A program made the position numbers and the translations under genes. Below are positions 43,048-51,247 of a stretch of 64,000 nucleotides of DNA, piece after piece. Source of the stretch: Sedimentisphaerales bacterium (GTDB taxonomy: Bacteria; Planctomycetota; Phycisphaerae; Sedimentisphaerales; SM23-30); NCBI GenBank assembly GCA_963663965.2, contig CAXXFK010000042.1:1-64000 (forward strand), in the 5' to 3' direction. Positions within the stretch are counted from its first letter, which is position 1. Each line of letters starts with the position of its first letter. The notes under the pieces were generated by a model, which saw nothing but the letters and a program-made list of their open reading frames with translations, made no database searches and had not been told where the DNA came from.

Positions 43048-44139
43048 TCAGGGCATGGGTGCCACCACGGGCCAGTCCTCTTTCCAGACAATGGTTGAAA
43101 TCTGCAGATAGGAGCGTCCAAACTGGGCGTCGTAGGCGTGGCAGATGAGATAATCGGTGTTGTTATCATGGAAGACGGCCTGGTGTCCGACACCATGCCA
43201 TTTTTCAGTGGCGGCGGCAAGGATCTGAGTTCCGCCGCCAATAGCCATGTCGATACCGTTCTGATCAAGGTAGGGGCCGGTGAGGTCGTGGGAGCGTCCG
43301 ACGATAACGTTGTAGGTGCTGTTGACACCCCGACAGCAGAAATCGGCCGAGACAAAAAGATACCACCATTTGCCGTGTTTGATGATGAAAGGCGCTTCGA
43401 TAGCACCTTCAACCGGTGGGGTGACATGTTCGCTGCCGCGCGGCCGGGCGCAGAGGGTATAGAGGGTTGTGTTATCCGTGGAGAACATGCCGGTTTGGGG
43501 ATCAAGCTGACGCATTTTGATGCCGCCCCAGAAACTGCCCCAACAGAGCCAGACGGAATCTTTATCTTCGTATACCAGGTTGGCGTCAATCGCGTTGAAG
43601 TCATCCTGGCCGGCGGTAGAGCGGACTACCATGCCGTGATCGATCCATTTGTTGTCGGGGCTGTTCGGGTCAAGGGTGGTGTTGGTGGCGAGTCCGATGG
43701 CGGAGTTGTTGCGGCCGAAGGTTGAGATGGAGTAGTAGAGGTGGTATTGGCCGTTGAAATAGGAGATATCGGGGGCCCAGGAGCCGCGCGTGCCGGGGAT
43801 TTGCTCGGTACACCATGCGGGGAGTTGATCGAAGACGTAGCCGCAGCGCTGCCAGTTGATCATGTCTTTGGAGCAGCGGATTGGGATAATACCACCGCGA
43901 CGACCGCCTCCGCCAGTGCAAAACAGATAATAGGTGTCGCCTTCCTTGATCATGACCGGATCGTGTACGAAGGTATCGCCTTTGGGTTCGAAACGGATGG
44001 GTTCGTTTGGAATGGTCAGGGATTGACATCCGGCGAGATAGATGATCAGGATAAACGCAATGGCTGGCAGGAAAGCCGATTTAGAGAAGTCGCTGGAAGC
44101 AGGGGATCGATGGGGATGCTTTAATTTTGAGTTACGCAT
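43048..44139 (-). CDS. GH43 endo-1,5-alpha-L-arabinanase (lipoprotein)
   Basis: LAGC lipobox; VHDP, WAPD, NAIDAN, GSFWGGIK, IEAP, CCRG..STY, GH. Confidence 0.92.
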   Translation of the reverse strand: MRNSKLKHPHRSPASSDFSKSAFLPAIAFILIIYLAGCQSLTIPNEPIRFEPKGDTFVHDPVMIKEGDTYYLFCTGGGGRRGGIIPIRCSKDMINWQRCGYVFDQLPAWCTEQIPGTRGSWAPDISYFNGQYHLYYSISTFGRNNSAIGLATNTTLDPNSPDNKWIDHGMVVRSTAGQDDFNAIDANLVYEDKDSVWLCWGSFWGGIKMRQLDPQTGMFSTDNTTLYTLCARPRGSEHVTPPVEGAIEAPFIIKHGKWWYLFVSADFCCRGVNSTYNVIVGRSHDLTGPYLDQNGIDMAIGGGTQILAAATEKWHGVGHQAVFHDNNTDYLICHAYDAQFGRSYLQISTIVWKEDWPVVAPMP

Positions 44140-44332
44140 GCTAATAATCCTTTCCGTTACGATTGAAAATCAGTTTAGAGTTATAACGGGATAAACTCGC
44201 GATTTATTGTATGGATAATATCAGCCTGCATCCAGAGGTTGGGAGCGGCTATGTGCGCACGTGGATTGGTCCGACTTGAATTCTGGATCAAGACGGTAGC
44301 TAGAATGTATGGTTGTGGTAGTTGAGGTTACT

Positions 44333-45172
44333 TTATTTCTTATCCTCCTGGATGGGGATGTCGGCGGGTGGTTTGGTGGGGATGCCGAGGGCGTGGAGGG
44401 CTTCTTCGCCGTTCTGCTGGGAGAAGGTGTTGAGGGCTTCGTAGCGGTTACAGGCGTAACTGAAGACCTGGTCGTCAGTTACGCTGTGGTCTTTCATCAA
44501 TTCGGGGAGTCGGTCTTTGATGTATTCGGGGGCGAGTTTGGCTTCGCTGGGGTGTGTGGGGATTCTGGGTGGGTCGGGGATGTGGACGCGGGGTAAGTCG
44601 GGAAATGGGTACTCTGGGGGGTAGGCATTGGGTTCGTTTGGTTTTTGTTGTAATTGCAACTGTTGCAGTAGCTTAAGATTGGCCTGGAAGGTACGATTGA
44701 GGTGGGCTTCGTAGCGGGCCAGGCAGTTGAAGGCGGGGACTTCGAGGGTGAAGGCGGTGCCGACTTCGTTGTGGCGGGGCAGGTAGATACTCGAATGGGC
44801 GAAGGGCTGGTCGATGACGGTGTCTTTGCGAATTTCTTCGTTGGTGAGTCGGAGTTGATAGACGCGGGCATCGATCATTTCGGCTTCGATGCGGCCGATC
44901 CGTTCCAGTCGCCAGGCGGTGGAGACTATCTGGTCGGCGATGTGGCGCTGGAGATAGGTGGTGGGTTTGAGGTCTTGCAGCAATGCGGCGCGGAACTCGA
45001 GGTAAGTGAGTTCGGACTCGCCGGGGACAATGAGATGGGCGGGGTCCCGGCCACTGAGGCCGTGCTTGATGGCATTTTTCGATGAGATGGCCTTGCCTTC
45101 GGGGGTTTTGGGGCCGGTGGATTTCTGGGCGTTGCGACGGTTGGCTCTGAGTCTTCTTAGTGACGATGACAT
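44333..45172 (-). CDS. Uncharacterised RRNAQKSTGP-family protein (N-terminus related to the HGGxSTG motif)
   Basis: ANRRNAQKSTGPKTPEGKAISSKNAIKHGL, WRLERI.R.E, L.RYE..L.R, then QKPNEPN and a Pro-rich tail; AGGAGG RBS. Confidence 0.85.
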   Translation of the reverse strand: MSSSLRRLRANRRNAQKSTGPKTPEGKAISSKNAIKHGLSGRDPAHLIVPGESELTYLEFRAALLQDLKPTTYLQRHIADQIVSTAWRLERIGRIEAEMIDARVYQLRLTNEEIRKDTVIDQPFAHSSIYLPRHNEVGTAFTLEVPAFNCLARYEAHLNRTFQANLKLLQQLQLQQKPNEPNAYPPEYPFPDLPRVHIPDPPRIPTHPSEAKLAPEYIKDRLPELMKDHSVTDDQVFSYACNRYEALNTFSQQNGEEALHALGIPTKPPADIPIQEDKK

Positions 45173-45226
45173 GGTTGGTACCTCCTGTTAAAAATAGGTT
45201 AAAAGTTAAATCAGTCGAATCTTTGA

Positions 45227-45800
45227 TAAGTTTAAGTTTTGGTTGATGTTATGGTCATATTTTTTGTTGTTGGCTTCGTTTCGTTTTATGTTGGTATTCG
45301 CTGCGCTCATGTTAGTTTTATCTATCTCTTTTGCGAGATATCCTGTCGGTACGCCTCTACGAGGCGAGGGTTAAAAATTTCAATCTCATGATCGTTACCC
45401 AGGGTGGCGCTCGTCCCGTTATACGGGATTCGCTCTACCCTGGGCTGTTTTATGCCGGCCCGTTGGGCTGCTTTGGGTATCCGCCATTTGGCGGATGAAA
45501 TTATTATTTTCGTTAAGCTCATTTTGTGGTTGAGGTTATGGTCATTATTTTCATCATTGGGTTCGTTTCGTTTAGCATTAGTTTTCGCTGCGCTCATGTT
45601 GGTTTTATCTATCTCTTTTGCGAGATATCCTGCAGGTACGCCTCTGCGAGGCGTGGGTTAAAAATATACGTTTCGGATTCGGGTATTCCCGCCAATGAAT
45701 TGGCGGGCTAGGCGCTTTTGATCTCTCCGAGATATTATTTGTATCCGCCTTGAGGCGGATGTTGTTTTATTTTTTGGTAAGCCCAATTCATATTGGAGTT
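45227..45800. repeat. Left part of hairpin-rich tandem array (units 1-2)
   Basis: Core TTCGCTGCGCTCATG at 45297 and 45584; same modules as 49414-50870. Confidence 0.92.
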
Positions 45801-45804
45801 CACA

Positions 45805-45852
45805 AGGCGACGCATGCACCCACAAGCTGCGCTTGAAGGGTGGCACCCGGCA
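45805..45852. repeat. Solo REP-like palindrome
   Basis: CACCCACAAGCTGCGCTTGAAGGGTG followed by GCACCCGG. Confidence 0.5.
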
Positions 45853-46124
45853 CACAGCTTAACCCCCAAAAATGCGCAGAGAATCTCTGTAGGCGTGGCC
45901 GAGTGGGTGTGGGGCACACCGGGGGTTCGGGGGCTATTGGGGCGACTTTGGGATTATAGACTGGTGTTGTAATATAGTCAAATAAATAATATAGTATTGT
46001 GTAATAAAAACACAAATATATTTAAGTTTCGTTATGAATAAATATGGGACAAATGGGGCCGATGGGACGTATGTGAGTGTAAGATACTGAAATGTATGTT
46101 GTTATGGTGAATATGGTGGTGGGA

Positions 46125-46176
46125 TTGGGAATAATGGGAATAATGGGAATAATGGGAGTTATGGGAGTTATGGGAA
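46125..46176. repeat. 9-bp tandem repeat (ATGGGAATA / ATGGGAGTT, about 6 copies)
   Basis: ttgggaata atgggaata atgggaata atgggagtt atgggagtt atgggaact; a degenerate run also occurs at ~46045-46073. Confidence 0.85.
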
Positions 46177-46228
46177 CTTTGGGAGGAGATCTTTGGGGTA
46201 ATGTCTTTAAACTAGTATTCACTGTGAT

Positions 46229-46537
46229 TCATAAATGCTGGTCGCCGGGGTTCTCCGCGAACAGCCGGTAGCCGCTGCGGGTGATGGCGGTCAGGCGGTA
46301 GGTGGTTCCGGGCGGGCCGGCGGTGAACTGGCCGGCGGGGTCGGTGGTGACGGTGATGGTGCGAGACTCGCCGCCGTCAGGCGGGGCAATTTCCAGCCGG
46401 AGGGCGGCCTGGCCGACCGGTTCGCCGTACTGGTCCACAACGCGGTCGGTGCCCTCGGCCGGCCGGGGCAACAGGGTCAGGATGGTCAGGATCAATACGG
46501 CGGACAGTGAAAGGATGGTTCGTTGATGGTGCTGCAT
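46229..46537 (-). CDS. Small secreted protein or fragment with a carboxypeptidase-regulatory-like beta-sandwich
   Basis: Signal peptide; RVVDQYGEPV.QA...TTD..G.F pattern; GC-rich; AAGGAG RBS; ends abruptly at AT-rich sequence. Confidence 0.55.
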   Translation of the reverse strand: MQHHQRTILSLSAVLILTILTLLPRPAEGTDRVVDQYGEPVGQAALRLEIAPPDGGESRTITVTTDPAGQFTAGPPGTTYRLTAITRSGYRLFAENPGDQHL

Positions 46538-46720
46538 ATCGGGCTCCTTTGTTTTTAGGGCTTGCTGGAATTTTGCTTCATTGTTTGCGGAATTTCTATC
46601 AGGGTATTATTGCACTCTTTGTTATCACTGGTTTTATTGGTTCGTCTTTCTGATTTGTTGTCTTAATCCATCCACAAGTTTCACTGCGTTACGCTTGAAG
46701 TGTTATGTAAATTTTGGTCT

Positions 46721-47092
46721 TTATTCGAAACTAAATGAGAATAATTTATCTGTAATCAATAATAATACTGACCGACATTTTAATTCAAAACTATTTTCGT
46801 CATCATGCAAGACACAAAGATGTTCATCTTCCATTTCGTTATTAGAGTATTCAATAGTTAATGTTAATTCATTATATCTAAATTTTCCACAAAAGAAATC
46901 GCATCCTAAACAGCATATATACAAATGTTCTTCTTTATCATCCCTACTCAAACGAATAGCAAATCTTCTCCCTAATGATATAGTATAATGCCATAATTTT
47001 GCTTCTGACGCCTCCCATTGTCTTAATACAGGTGGTATTTGTTGGGGGGAAAAAGTAGAATCTACTTGTTTATGAACTCTGTCCCATTCCAT
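46721..47092 (-). CDS. Putative Rhs immunity protein
   Basis: Small AT-rich ORF overlapping the toxin stop codon. Confidence 0.65.
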   Translation of the reverse strand: MEWDRVHKQVDSTFSPQQIPPVLRQWEASEAKLWHYTISLGRRFAIRLSRDDKEEHLYICCLGCDFFCGKFRYNELTLTIEYSNNEMEDEHLCVLHDDENSFELKCRSVLLLITDKLFSFSFE

Positions 47093-48198
47093 TTCACATG
47101 ATCTCCATTTTTTATGAATTTTACTTTGTCCAAAAGATTTTCTTCGATCAAATAATTTAGTTCAGCATTCGTAATATTGCCACATGAAAAACCTTTAGAT
47201 CTATCTTTTAAAAATATCTGTACATCAAAGTTAGACACATCAAAAACAATCTCATCTGCATTTTTAACGGCCTCTTCAAATGATTTTCTAAAATAAAAAT
47301 CATTCCCCCATGCTCTCCCCCAATCAACTCTTGTCAGGCCAGCTTTTTGCCAACCACCTTCATAATATTTTATAACACCTCTTGGCAATCGATGAAGATC
47401 ATCATCAAGGCCTAATCCAATTATTCTCTTTTTATTGTTAGAAGTCAATCCGTATTTACTGTTTATCAAGTTTATTTCATTAACAAAATCATCTCCAATT
47501 TTAATCCATTCTTGTCGATTGATAGCAGGAAAATCGTCGATTGATCCACTAATATAATTTGTGCTCAATTTTGGAAATCTGGAATTTGTCCATTGTAAAG
47601 ACTGTAATTTGGCTCCTATCTTTTGAAATGCAATATTCTCAATAATACCGTAAGCAATATTACCACTCGCCATACCAACAACCGGAGCGTTACCACAAGA
47701 TAAATCAGCTTTATATTGACTGATCATTATTGATACATGTTCAGCTGATACATTTGTTAATGCCGCCATAAATGCCATCTCTTGAGTAGCATAATTATTT
47801 TTGCATTTATCGTATTCAATGAAAAAAGGCGTGGCGACAGTAGTAACAACTCCTTGAAATTTATTGATAGTCTCCGGCGGAGGGGTTTTAAAGAAATTAT
47901 CTACACTCTCAACAGTATTCGCCACATTAACAACAATTTGTGCTGCTCCAACTTTAATTACGGTCTCAACATTATCAGAGAATTGACTTGCTTTTCGTGT
48001 ACCTGGGCGAAATCCATATTTATTGAAATAAGAATCTTCAATTAATTCATAACGTTTCTGTTGCCTTTCCAACCCCAACAAATCCACCCCATTCACGCCC
48101 ATATAGGCGTTATAGAGGTTCAGGCCATCGGCGTATCCGGCCGGGTCTTCGCTGAGCCAGCGGCCGTGGACGGGGTCGTAGTCGCGGAAGTGGGTATG

Positions 48199-48291
48199 CG
48201 CCCATCGGGCGTTTCTATCGTGTCAGCATCAGGGCGGATATTAATCTGAAGATTCGTTGACAGACTATCACAAATGAATGAGGCAATGCCT
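48199..48291. mobile_element. 93-bp palindrome-ended insertion in the Rhs core
   Basis: Interrupts FTGK|HTHFRDY; ends carry CGCCCATCGGGCG and GAGGCAATGCCTC palindromes. Confidence 0.65.
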
Positions 48292-48438
48292 CTTACCCGT
48301 AAAGGGATCGCGAACCATGCCGCACCAGCCGAAGGGGATATATCGGGAACGGCCGATATTGTAGCCGGTATTGTCGGGGGTGTTTTCGGTGGTTCCATCT
48401 GCCGCAAAGGATTTGCACAGGCCGGTGGAATTGTATAC

Positions 48439-48540
48439 CCAATGGGTATGAATATTCCTGATCGCTCGCAAGCTAAGTTTTTACTCGTGTAGAACTAATG
48501 CACGGCCCAGCGGGCATTTTCAATGGTAAGCTGCAGAATT
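48439..48540. mobile_element. 102-bp insertion in the Rhs core
   Basis: Interrupts VEKL|VYNSTG; palindrome ATACCCAATGGGTAT at the junction. Confidence 0.6.
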
Positions 48541-48701
48541 GAGCTTTTCGACGAGCTGGCCTACGTTCGCACTGCCGGGTGTGGCATCGACCACGCCCAT
48601 CAGCGTGCCGCGGTCGTCGGTGATGGGCACATAGACCGTTTGCGGGGTGGTCTGGCCATTATAATTTTCGACCAGGGCCAGCCGGTTGATGCCTTCTTCA
48701 G

Positions 48702-48882
48702 AGAGCACCTGACAAAATAAGTTATCTACTCCGACCGGCTGCAAAAGTCACCCGCTGCGTTCTCGGGGCAAAACATCCTCGACAACCCATAGCAGGGTTG
48801 CCTGCGGGTGTTTTACCCCTGCGGCCTTGCCGGTAACTTTTTCGCTCGGTCTCGTTACGATAATTATTCAGTCAGGCACTCT
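48702..48882. mobile_element. 181-bp MITE in the Rhs core
   Basis: IRs AGAGCACCTGAC..AATAA / TTATT..GTCAGGCACTCT; removal restores RRYYTEEGIN. Confidence 0.75.
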
Positions 48883-49413
48883 TATAGTAGCGGCGTTTGA
48901 GCTTGTTTTGCAGCGCGGCCGGGGCCGAATCGGCATACCATTCCTCCACGAGCATGACCCCGTCGTAAACCAGTTCCTTGTCGTGGAATTCGCTGGAGGC
49001 CGGCAGACTGGCAGGATTGCCGCTACCGGTGGGCCATTTGTAATAATGGCCCACGCGCCGGCCGAAGGCGTCGTAGCGGTAATAGACTTCGACAGGGATG
49101 TCAGCATCTGGGCTGTCGCCATCCTGCGTCTTGTCGATGACCCGGGTACAGCGCGAATCGGGGAGATTGTCGTTCCACTGGTAGCGGTGGTGATAATCTT
49201 CGTCGATATGGCCGGTATTGGCGGCGCTATAGCCAAAATAGAGGTTGCCGGGGATCTGGTCCGGGACCATGTGGGTGATTTCAACAGAACACAGGCGGGC
49301 GTTTTGCGACCCGGCGCGAGAAAGAGTAAGCTTGCGGTCCGCGCCGACAAAAACGGTCTGTTCGCCGGCGAGGAGGGGTTCGGTCTGACTGGGCGATTTG
49401 ATATTTATTCATG

Positions 49414-50870
49414 TTGGGTTTCCCGTTAGATCGGGATTTTGCTGTGCTCAACGTTTTGTGTTGGTATTCGCTGCGCTCATGTTAGTTTTATCTATCTCTT
49501 TTGCGAGATAACCTGGCGGTACGCCTCTGCGAGGCGTGGGTTAAAATTTTAATTTCGGGTTTGGTACCCAGGGTGTCGCTCGTCCCGATGGATCGGGACT
49601 CGCTCTGCCCTGGGCTATTTTATGCCGGCCCGTTGGGCCGCTTTGGGTATCCGCCATTTGGCGGCTGTTCGTTTTATTTTTAGTTAAGCTCATTTTAACG
49701 CTGAGGTTAGAGTGACATTTTTTCATCATTGGGTTCGTTTTGAATTTGGTATTCGCTGCGCTCATGGTTAGTTTTATCTATCTCTTTTGCGAGATATCCT
49801 GTCGGTACGCCTCTGCGAGGCGTGGGTTAAAAGTTTCAAACTCGGGTTCGGGTATTCCCGCCAATGAATTGGCGGGCTATGCGCTTTTGATCTCTTCGAG
49901 ATATCATTTGTATCCGCCTTGAGGCGGATGAGTTTTTATTTTTTGTTAAGCTCATTTCGTTGGTGAGGTTAGGGTTATTATTTTCATCATTGGGTTTCCC
50001 GATAGATCGGGATTATGCTGTGCTCAACGTTTTGTATTGGTATTCGCTGCGCTCATGGTTGGTTTTATCTATCTCTTTTGCGAGATATCCTGGCGGTACG
50101 CCTCTGCGAGGCGTGGGTTAAAAATTTAATTTCGTGTTTGTTACCCAGGGTGGCGCTCGTCCCGATGGATCGGGACTCGCTCTGCCCTGGGCTATTTTAT
50201 ACTTGCCCGTTGGGCCGCTTTGGGTATCCGCCGTTCGGCGGATGTTTTTTTATTTTTTGTTAAGCTCATTTTAACGCTGAGGTTAGAGTGACATTTTTTC
50301 ATCATTGGGTTTCCCGATAGCTCGGGATTTTGCTGTGCTCAACGTTTTGTAATGGTATTCGCTGCGCTCATGGTGGTTTTATCTTTCGCCTTCGGTGCGA
50401 AATCCTGCAGGTACGCCTCTGCGAGGCGTGGATTAATCAAAGTAGCAAGCAGGAAGTAGCAAAGTTTTCCCGCCAATGAATTGGCGGGCTAGGCGCTTTT
50501 GATCTCTTCGAGATATTATTTGTATCCGTCCTCCTGAGGCGGACCTGCGGCCTTGAGGCGGATGAGTTTTTATTTTTTGTTAAGCTCATTTCGTTGGTGA
50601 GGTTAGGGTTATTATTTTCATCATTGGGTTTCCCGATAGATCGGGATTTCGCTGTGCTCAACGTTTTGTATTGGTATTCGCTGCGCTCATGGCTGGTTAA
50701 ACCAGGATGGGCAACCGGGGGTTGCCCATGCTACGTTATCTTTCGCCTTCGGTGCGAAATCCTGTCGGTACGCCTCTGCGAGGCGTGGAAAAAATTAAAA
50801 AACAATCGTTGACCGGCGGTCTTACGACCCCGGCTAGAAACGGTCGGCTCCTCCTGAGGCGGATCTTCGA
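49414..50870. repeat. Right part of hairpin-rich tandem array (units 3-7)
   Basis: Core TTCGCTGCGCTCATG at 49467, 49752, 50043, 50358, 50677 (periods 285, 291, 315, 319 bp). Confidence 0.95.
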
Positions 50871-51247
50871 CCTTCGGGCCTTTTACGTTTGGGTTGCCGG
50901 GTTGTGTTGTTTTTGCTGGCTTCCATTTCATTCGTACCTTATTAACAGTCAAAATAAATTGGCTGGTTGGGCCCGGTTCGTACGCTATCGCACCAAGCCA
51001 CTAAGATAAACAGCCATTTAGACAGGATAATCCCGATCCCGAGGGCTCGGGGTTTCGCTTTGCTCAATATCCGGGACTTTCAGCCGATCAACAGGATCAA
51101 AAGTTCGGGATCATTAAAATATCTTGTAAGATGTAGTCATTACTTTGCTTATAAAACATAAGAACAAAAAGCTTGCTAAGAAAACAAAGAAATGATGGAT
51201 TGTAGTACGAAAAGATATTACTTGTGATTTGGTAAAAAAGGTTCATT

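Follow-up and report, generated by a model that had tools for sequence, protein, structure and literature searches.

What kind of element is formed by a gene of 279 codons without any named relative and the repeated hairpin units lying upstream of it in the genome of a Sedimentisphaerales bacterium (Planctomycetota)? The gene (hereafter, gene A) occupies positions 44333 to 45172 of the minus strand in the stretch of 64,000 nucleotides analysed here (hereafter, the window), taken from the beginning of contig C42 in a 7.24 Mb assembly of 42 contigs. A previous sequence-only reading had described seven non-coding units, numbered 1 to 7 in this work according to their cores, each sharing a 12-nucleotide motif (12-mer) with the gene and, unit 3 excepted, starting with a TAAG-N17-GTTA box, and had proposed a selfish, recombination or structured-RNA system. 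The answer that we favour, to which we assign a probability of about 50%, is that gene A belongs to a family of cassettes made up of a protein resembling the small terminase (TerS) of phages and of its own packaging site, which would bias the packaging machine of the host towards cassette DNA.

The first point concerns the number of copies. The tblastn search retrieved 26 full-length copies of gene A from the genome, sharing 93–100% identity, plus one tail fragment; all of the 26 copies are 837 nt long and stop-free, as expected from a selfish-looking multicopy system and not from an ordinary cluster of repetitive extragenic palindromes (REPs). The mean proportions of synonymous (pS) and non-synonymous (pN) differences among them are 0.22 and 0.027, respectively (pN/pS 0.12), and the four-gamete test was failed by 4,747 of the 8,515 informative site pairs; thus, every copy is under selection and mosaic. 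A truncated copy on contig C11 begins at the in-gene 12-mer. The motif is also far more frequent than expected by chance, with 176 strict 12-mers in 7.24 Mb, whereas 40 letter permutations gave a median of 2 and at most 6. The idea that it is limited to the neighbourhood of gene A did not survive: 26 of these 12-mers fall inside the gene and 22 near it, while 128 are separated by over 7 kb from the nearest copy of gene A, many of them adjoining a second gene family or no gene at all. The box, which we take to resemble an IHF site, is placed exactly 18 nt from the motif in 114 of the 258 copies retrieved with a looser definition.

As far as can be told, an assembly artefact is unlikely, since short-read contigs bridge the junctions (44000–44361, 45935–46272 and 48779–49459); moreover, the summed contig depth in two public runs, which may represent the same sample as the assembly, is 55–133 over the gene and 1–4 over the unique outer flanks. 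The existence of a genuine multicopy cassette at this locus is nearly certain.

Cassettes are 1–2.5 kb long (about 44254–46237 for the copy in the window) and harbor a single gene, with no integrase, regulators or replication module of their own. Reading along the gene strand, each begins sharply at its upstream end and continues with an AT-rich arm, a promoter, a leader, at least one hairpin unit, the gene and a tail of 80 nt. The parts recognised in the window, together with the neighbouring segments, are the following:

44254..44332, minus strand: downstream end module of about 80 nt, with fixed spacing, a half box, a hairpin with compensatory changes and a terminal TGCGCA.
44333..45172, minus strand: gene A, 279 residues, with a predicted all-helical core (residues 1–180), an N-terminal module apparently in common with phage small terminases and a low-confidence Pro-rich tail.
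44628..44639, plus strand: in-gene 12-mer where the conserved domain ends, shared by all 26 copies.
45227..45513, plus strand: unit 1, with box (45227), 18-nt spacer, 12-mer (45270), core (45297) and hairpin modules.
45514..45775, plus strand: unit 2, with box (45514), 12-mer (45557), core (45584) and hairpin modules.
45776..45952, minus strand: terminal leader module, common to most copies.
45953..45981, minus strand: sigma70-like promoter (TTGACT, 17 nt, TATAAT), predicted from sequence and directed through the units at the gene.
45982..46237, minus strand: AT-rich upstream arm and upstream cassette end, the latter being a variant of a 26-nt REP-like motif.
46238..48039, no strand: flank that recurs beside a cassette on contig C3 (1,803 nt, 98.8%) and, partially, beside the C16 and C11 cassettes, either co-transferred or co-converted.
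48887..49413, minus strand: Rhs-like fragment (label given by eye), joined at the expected box of unit 3 and part of a segment duplicated on contig C32.
49414..50870, plus strand: gene-less array of units 3 to 7 (cores at 49467, 49752, 50043, 50358 and 50677; boxes at 49685, 49947, 50261 and 50581).
50871..51213, plus strand: end module of the second array, corresponding to the end of the segment duplicated on C32.

All seven cores, the six boxes, the missing box of unit 3, the in-gene 12-mer and the gap of 55 nt between the ATG and the first box were found again where the sequence-only reading had placed them, and the ACGCC hairpin was seen in each of the seven units. The ATCCGCC hairpin was retrieved from units 1 to 6 and is lacking in unit 7; likewise, the exact 12-mer occurs in three units only (at 45270, 45557 and 49729), that of units 3, 5, 6 and 7 being split by an inserted short hairpin. 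Tiny palindromes of 15–22 nt are inserted in motifs or hairpin stems of some units and not of others (e.g., 49420–49445 and 50529–50550). What had been taken for a single split array consists of two pieces: the gene A cassette stops at about 46237, and the region 48887–51213, including the Rhs-like piece and units 3 to 7, is a separate segment with a 98% duplicate on C32. The junction of the Rhs-like fragment with a motif copy at unit 3 was confirmed; its label still derives from inspection by eye, and the corresponding open reading frame (ORF) had no match in Pfam and NCBIfam searches.

The 12-mer is not the terminus, one of the two roles supposed for it, the real ends being the REP-like 26-mer upstream and the 80-nt module downstream. 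The hairpin of the latter has a mean z of −2.5, with z below −2 in 16 out of 26 copies versus 4 out of 26 control windows, and shows compensatory pairs. The two ends are unlike each other, and no target duplication was seen by eye in the cassette flanks. Flank sharing among cassettes is mainly upstream (1,803, 463 and 107 nt, versus one match of 85 nt downstream). A dif-like nature of the upstream end was ruled out, since its motif has 52 near copies in the genome and a separate, single dif-like match is found on contig C31.

Concerning the protein encoded by gene A, searches in Pfam, NCBIfam, PHROG and PDB sequences gave no match, and the ESM Atlas returned unnamed clusters only, residues 1–110 being without a usable named match. 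The structural model is all-helical, with a pLDDT (model confidence score) higher than 90 over much of residues 51–100 and 141–170 and a loose tail. The sequence-only reading had suggested a nuclease, recombinase or small-terminase fold. Neither of the first two was found by Foldseek and VIA, which retrieved only coiled coils and no TerS; the same happened with the model of a phage TerS in the PDB set. The small terminase is the lead that survives best. Indeed, 23 out of 119 members of the family had some PHROG match, seven of which weakly matched three TerS PHROGs over the same region. For two members the best phage match is the gene placed directly before those encoding the large terminase (TerL) and the portal in Bacillus phage vB_BboS-125, and this gene itself matches three TerS PHROGs. 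The HHalign comparison between the family and the phage family at the TerS position gave 96.2% and 98.1%, the latter over 42 columns only, and the order of the helices following this match is equal in the two models.

Furthermore, the modelling of four copies of residues 1–180 as a homo-oligomer gave a score of 0.79 versus 0.01 for the best control and placed partners on both faces; the runs had no less than 52% of contacts in common and a pLDDT of 69 or higher. The mark adopted was reached by 20 out of 30 solved pairs and by one out of 23 single chains, counts that hold roughly. The models thus display an N-terminal module, a central helical oligomerisation domain, a flexible C-terminus and a homo-oligomer, as in TerS proteins, even if no copy of gene A in this genome lies directly upstream of a TerL gene. 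The best reading of these predictions is a putative ring- or arc-forming DNA-binding protein, whose N-terminal module would be related to that of phage TerS. Other identities were considered and set aside: a tyrosine-recombinase-like catalysis, based on conserved R, H, W and Y residues, has no fold support; an insertion-sequence transposase is contradicted by the lack of any known-family match, by the all-helical model and by the absence of terminal inverted repeats and of target duplications visible by eye; as for a REPtron/RAYT, gene A falls outside the 11 places of the genome matched by PF01797.

The second repeated gene (hereafter, family B) links these cassettes to the terminase of the host. 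It is represented by 15 N-terminal starts, some of them belonging to broken genes, and carries the motif and the box in frame within a low-complexity tail (e.g., L219:1594–2376); it has a promoter similar to that of the gene A cassettes and shares their modules, and the C15 copy even ends in the 80-nt tail of gene A. The copy on contig C30 is followed by an ORF of 489 residues matched by six TerL PHROGs (best 3e-12), which is the single TerL of this genome (TerS-TerL locus C30:122209–124448, L223). A homologue of this TerL is harbored by 33 out of 41 genomes of the order, and by 21 of the 22 high-quality ones, nearly always as a single copy. In the relatives, it often follows an ABC-like gene, a ParB-like gene and a gene of 150 codons; TerS PHROGs match six of the seven 150-residue proteins tested, over the N-terminus, so that we refer to them as the native TerS. 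The native-TerS profile, in turn, matches 12 family B frames (E-values from 3e-5 to 4e-4); therefore, family B is the terS gene of the host, amplified and fitted with the motif. From sequence comparison, two unrelated TerS-like genes would be using one and the same site. Two more native-TerS-like genes are located at C22:90757 and C24:4048, and in five metagenome loci (L226–L230) a conserved TerL without TerS lies, by eye, back to back with a dnaA-like gene.

It must be noted that PF17289, PF03237 and the acidobacterial TerL profile all failed to detect the TerL of this genome, which was found only by reading the DNA; because of this, blanks obtained with such profiles say little. TerS PHROG searches of the same genome gave only noise with E-values up to 1.

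Portal, scaffold and major head genes are also located on C30, 72 kb from the TerL gene (C30:195449–205170; L262:5449–15170). The portal gene was found, as a single copy, in 15 out of 21 genomes, and the major head gene in 32 out of 41 at 60–75% identity, nearly always single. A gene for a tyrosine recombinase, by eye the XerD of the host, lies 1.3 kb beyond the head cluster. Searches for HK97-type portal and capsid families were negative in this genome, the Mu portal search had no match anywhere, controls included, and phrog_2 gave two weak matches (one of them a PhoH-like frame by eye), not comprising the C30 gene. Packaging and head genes that are single-copy, vertically kept and split among several loci fit the description of a gene transfer agent (GTA; PMC11841831); the dispersed, order-wide TerS-TerL and portal-scaffold-head set is therefore a candidate undescribed GTA, as judged from its genes.

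We then consider the distribution of the gene A family outside this genome. A word search retrieved 967 homologues, and the family comprises 51,653 representatives (clusters at 50% identity, E-value not higher than 0.001), none of which is named. After removing from 104 loci the seven of this genome and two overlapping ones, 95 loci (several per genome in some cases) were left for the analysis of motif co-occurrence. The expectation that the motif would accompany homologues proved correct: it is present in 68 out of 95 loci across phyla, in the interval from 1.5 kb upstream to 1 kb downstream and in most cases where the conserved domain ends, on the gene strand in 46 loci and on the other strand in 24. 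In 15 of the 68 loci the box is placed at an equal spacing; on the whole, it stands next to 18 out of 127 motif copies near homologues, versus 0.16% of random positions. Close relatives also show a motif-box-motif arrangement at about 90 bp.

The family is patchy, being present in eight out of 40 relatives and mostly with one to three copies, and it is rare in viral contigs (four loci) and plasmids (one). Five Acidobacteriota genomes harbor 36, 89, 8, 103 and 49 family matches. The neighbouring ORFs of homologues (150 scanned out of 161) are ordinary host genes, apart from one TerL, one integrase and one transposase. Some members deserve separate mention. Nine genomes of one family, f41 (G076, G105, G128, G147, G165, G181, G197, G213 and G243), have a single-copy homologue without the N-terminal module, possibly a domesticated member; the elements in which the L082–L084 homologues lie also encode YqaJ and ERF for recombination, DUF5681, TerL and a ParB-methylase, and L083 and L084 have, by eye, a second, N-terminally short homologue; a G042 subfamily (L213–L218) has a terminal SEC-C-like cysteine motif, with short tandem repeats after it.

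In four of the five Acidobacteriota genomes, solo TerL genes are scattered along the chromosome, the fifth having a TerL of another type. The family gene lies inside six of the 19 distinct acidobacterial solo-TerL loci, in genomes with up to 103 family matches; three homologues, all from one genome, immediately precede TerL, and the L119 cassette, placed before clpB, has just two genes (the family gene and TerL). The family gene also adjoins TerL in two alphaproteobacteria-like viral contigs. In a set of 201 genomes, 19 were TerL-positive and 15 family-positive, without overlap; this says little, since the acidobacterial TerL profile used had missed the TerL of the genome studied here. Many acidobacterial solo TerL genes (L116–L134) are split at one place into an ATPase frame and a nuclease frame, with the catalytic motifs kept.

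The whole body of data can be depicted in the following scenario. The recognition site would be the 12-mer plus the box at the fixed 18-nt spacing, with one copy inside the gene. The gene A protein would bind the motif and recruit a TerL, borrowed from the host together with the heads; cutting and headful packaging would then start at cassette sites, so that cassette DNA would be over-represented in the particles. Incoming cassette DNA would recombine with resident copies and with the flanking REP-like modules, yielding mosaic copies, flanking DNA carried along and, occasionally, a new site. Gene-less arrays would represent non-autonomous sites. Such a mechanism would account for the selection on each copy, the site inside the gene, the constant mixing of copies, the one-sided carriage of flanks and the existence of gene-less arrays. 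A broader interpretation is possible but tentative, that is, that a large, unnamed class of selfish elements, each made of a TerS-like gene and a packaging site, drives on the domesticated gene-transfer machine of its host, that the terS of the host was itself turned into one of them here, and that a whole planctomycete order possesses an undescribed GTA.

Several observations weigh against the packaging scenario. Insertion at new sites is not explained by packaging alone; it might be due to recombination through the REP-like modules or to a Y1 transposase that works on the upstream end, the REP-like motif of which is also found beside Y1-type transposase genes. Only 42 columns are covered by the TerS match of gene A, and no fold match other than coiled coils was obtained; the window protein itself has neither a PHROG nor a phage-record match, and gene A has no similarity to the native TerS. 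Only one of the 150 neighbouring ORFs of homologues encodes a TerL, and three of the six acidobacterial loci in which the family gene adjoins TerL belong to a genome selected because it had such a locus. The motif is close to TerL in one out of 38 loci, the one of this genome. Its orientation is opposite to the gene in 24 of the 95 loci, and only 18 out of 127 copies near homologues have the box. Lastly, the C30 TerL (489 residues) matches its relatives only up to about residue 460, so that the end of this copy may not be intact, and no tail gene could be recognised beyond the head cluster, the six ORFs after the head gene having no PHROG match.

An unlikely alternative is that the terminase acts inside the cell, with the gene A protein steering the nuclease of TerL to the motif and the repair of the cut by ectopic recombination copying the cassette, without any particle. 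This would explain the mosaicism, the truncated copy starting at the in-gene motif and the Rhs junction beside a motif; it also agrees with the acidobacterial cassettes made of the family gene and TerL, no portal or capsid having been found among 31 neighbours of the acidobacterial TerL loci. However, portal and head genes are kept in most genomes of the order, and the cassette ends do not coincide with the motif.

We consider it equally improbable that the element is REPIN-like and non-autonomous, its movement depending on a Y1 (HUH) transposase of the host, with gene A acting as a DNA-binding passenger or helper whose terminase likeness is incidental. REP/BIME mosaics are known, as are REPtrons (RAYT), in which a HUH Y1 transposase is flanked by REPs. 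The cassettes resemble them in their mosaic arrays of short, REP-like hairpins and in the REP-like motif at one end only: some of the 52 copies of the 26-nt motif lie, with the same boundary, at the ends of eight HUH-type genes (about 320 residues; RAYT label by eye). In two other genomes, too, family copies border on dispersed repeats, and the lack of a visible target duplication is in line with this explanation. On the other hand, the abutting repeat varies from genome to genome, and PF01797 matched one of the eight HUH-type genes, weakly; moreover, the selection on all 26 genes, the link between motif and family across phyla and the TerS-derived second gene with the same motif are left unexplained. 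Differently from REPtrons, the cassettes do not encode a HUH transposase, and what is conserved across phyla is the motif with the box and not the hairpins.

It is distinctly unlikely that the copies serve the host, either tuning GTA packaging through extra TerS-like genes and scattered sites or acting as decoys for phage terminases. The purifying selection on all copies, the old and diverged ends in which the hairpin is kept, the spread of sites over the genome (114 islands, median gap of 33 kb) and the near absence of the family from viral contigs are compatible with it, but the patchy presence among relatives and the bursts to 26–103 copies suit a parasite better. Finally, a structured RNA, that is, a long hairpin-rich leader driven by the promoter and bound by the protein, is highly improbable despite the promoter lying upstream of units all in one orientation, since the Rfam scan gave two sub-threshold matches and no family at its cut-off, the units are genome-specific and shuffled while relatives keep the motif and the box, and the motif occurs on either strand.

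If we return to the packaging scenario, its closest parallels are found among phages and their parasites. In P22 and SPP1, the pac sites are inside the terS genes. The cassette would share with a phage TerS and its site the (predicted) N-terminal DNA-binding module, the helical oligomerisation core and the loose C-terminus, together with repeated short sites associated with a spaced AT-rich box, one of them in the gene; differently from phages, the cassette gene is solitary and occurs many times among ordinary host genes, and the match covers about 42 residues. In lambda, according to the sections of PMC4856287 that we consulted, repeated TerS sites (cosB) are arranged around an IHF bend. Phage-inducible chromosomal islands and other satellites redirect the terminase of their helper, as reported in the consulted parts of PMC6739421 and PMC9026076; in them, a packaging-specificity protein of the parasite and its own site divert the motor, as we presume for the cassette. 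Unlike satellites, it is 1–2.5 kb long with one gene and 26–103 dispersed copies per genome, has no replication gene and only one integrase among 150 neighbours of homologues, and its likely helper is a vertically kept set of host genes rather than a phage. Known GTAs are described, in the portion of PMC11841831 available to us, as having neither a TerS DNA-binding domain nor a packaging start site. The gene set of this order, known here from its genes, resembles them in its single-copy TerS-TerL and portal-scaffold-head loci at separate positions, but the N-terminus of its native TerS matches TerS families, and this gene, too, was amplified together with sites. By analogy, the cassette is best read as probably working like the packaging switch of a satellite, although it belongs neither to satellites nor to insertion sequences or REPtrons.

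In the literature searched, which left out most subscription papers, no description of the motif or of the terminase link was found, nor any GTA reported for this group. In the consulted parts of two papers on Acidobacteria genomes (PMC3469429, PMC5900883), terminases are treated only as prophage markers; their supplements may list such genes. The link between the gene family and DNA packaging thus appears to be new. If true, one of the larger protein families still without a name would gain a function, and a type of mobile element devoid of transposase and integrase would be defined. GTA persistence and the choice of DNA by GTAs are among the open questions listed in the part of PMC11841831 considered here; a cheater on unbiased packaging would be the parasite that GTA-like systems should attract, and the exact places where particle DNA starts would be predicted. 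The order-wide gene set would in itself represent a candidate GTA outside the groups known to have them, in an order with cultured members.

Some minor features of the window remain to be mentioned. An 11-nt motif match at 43998–44008, within a neighbouring GH43 gene, is probably due to chance. Region 46721–48102 contains a low-GC gene pair resembling the C-terminal domain of an Rhs protein with the corresponding immunity gene, without a family match, which was copied with the flank to C3. Other dispersed repeats are located at 48434–48531 (98 bp, with dozens of copies in the genome) and at 48702–48882.

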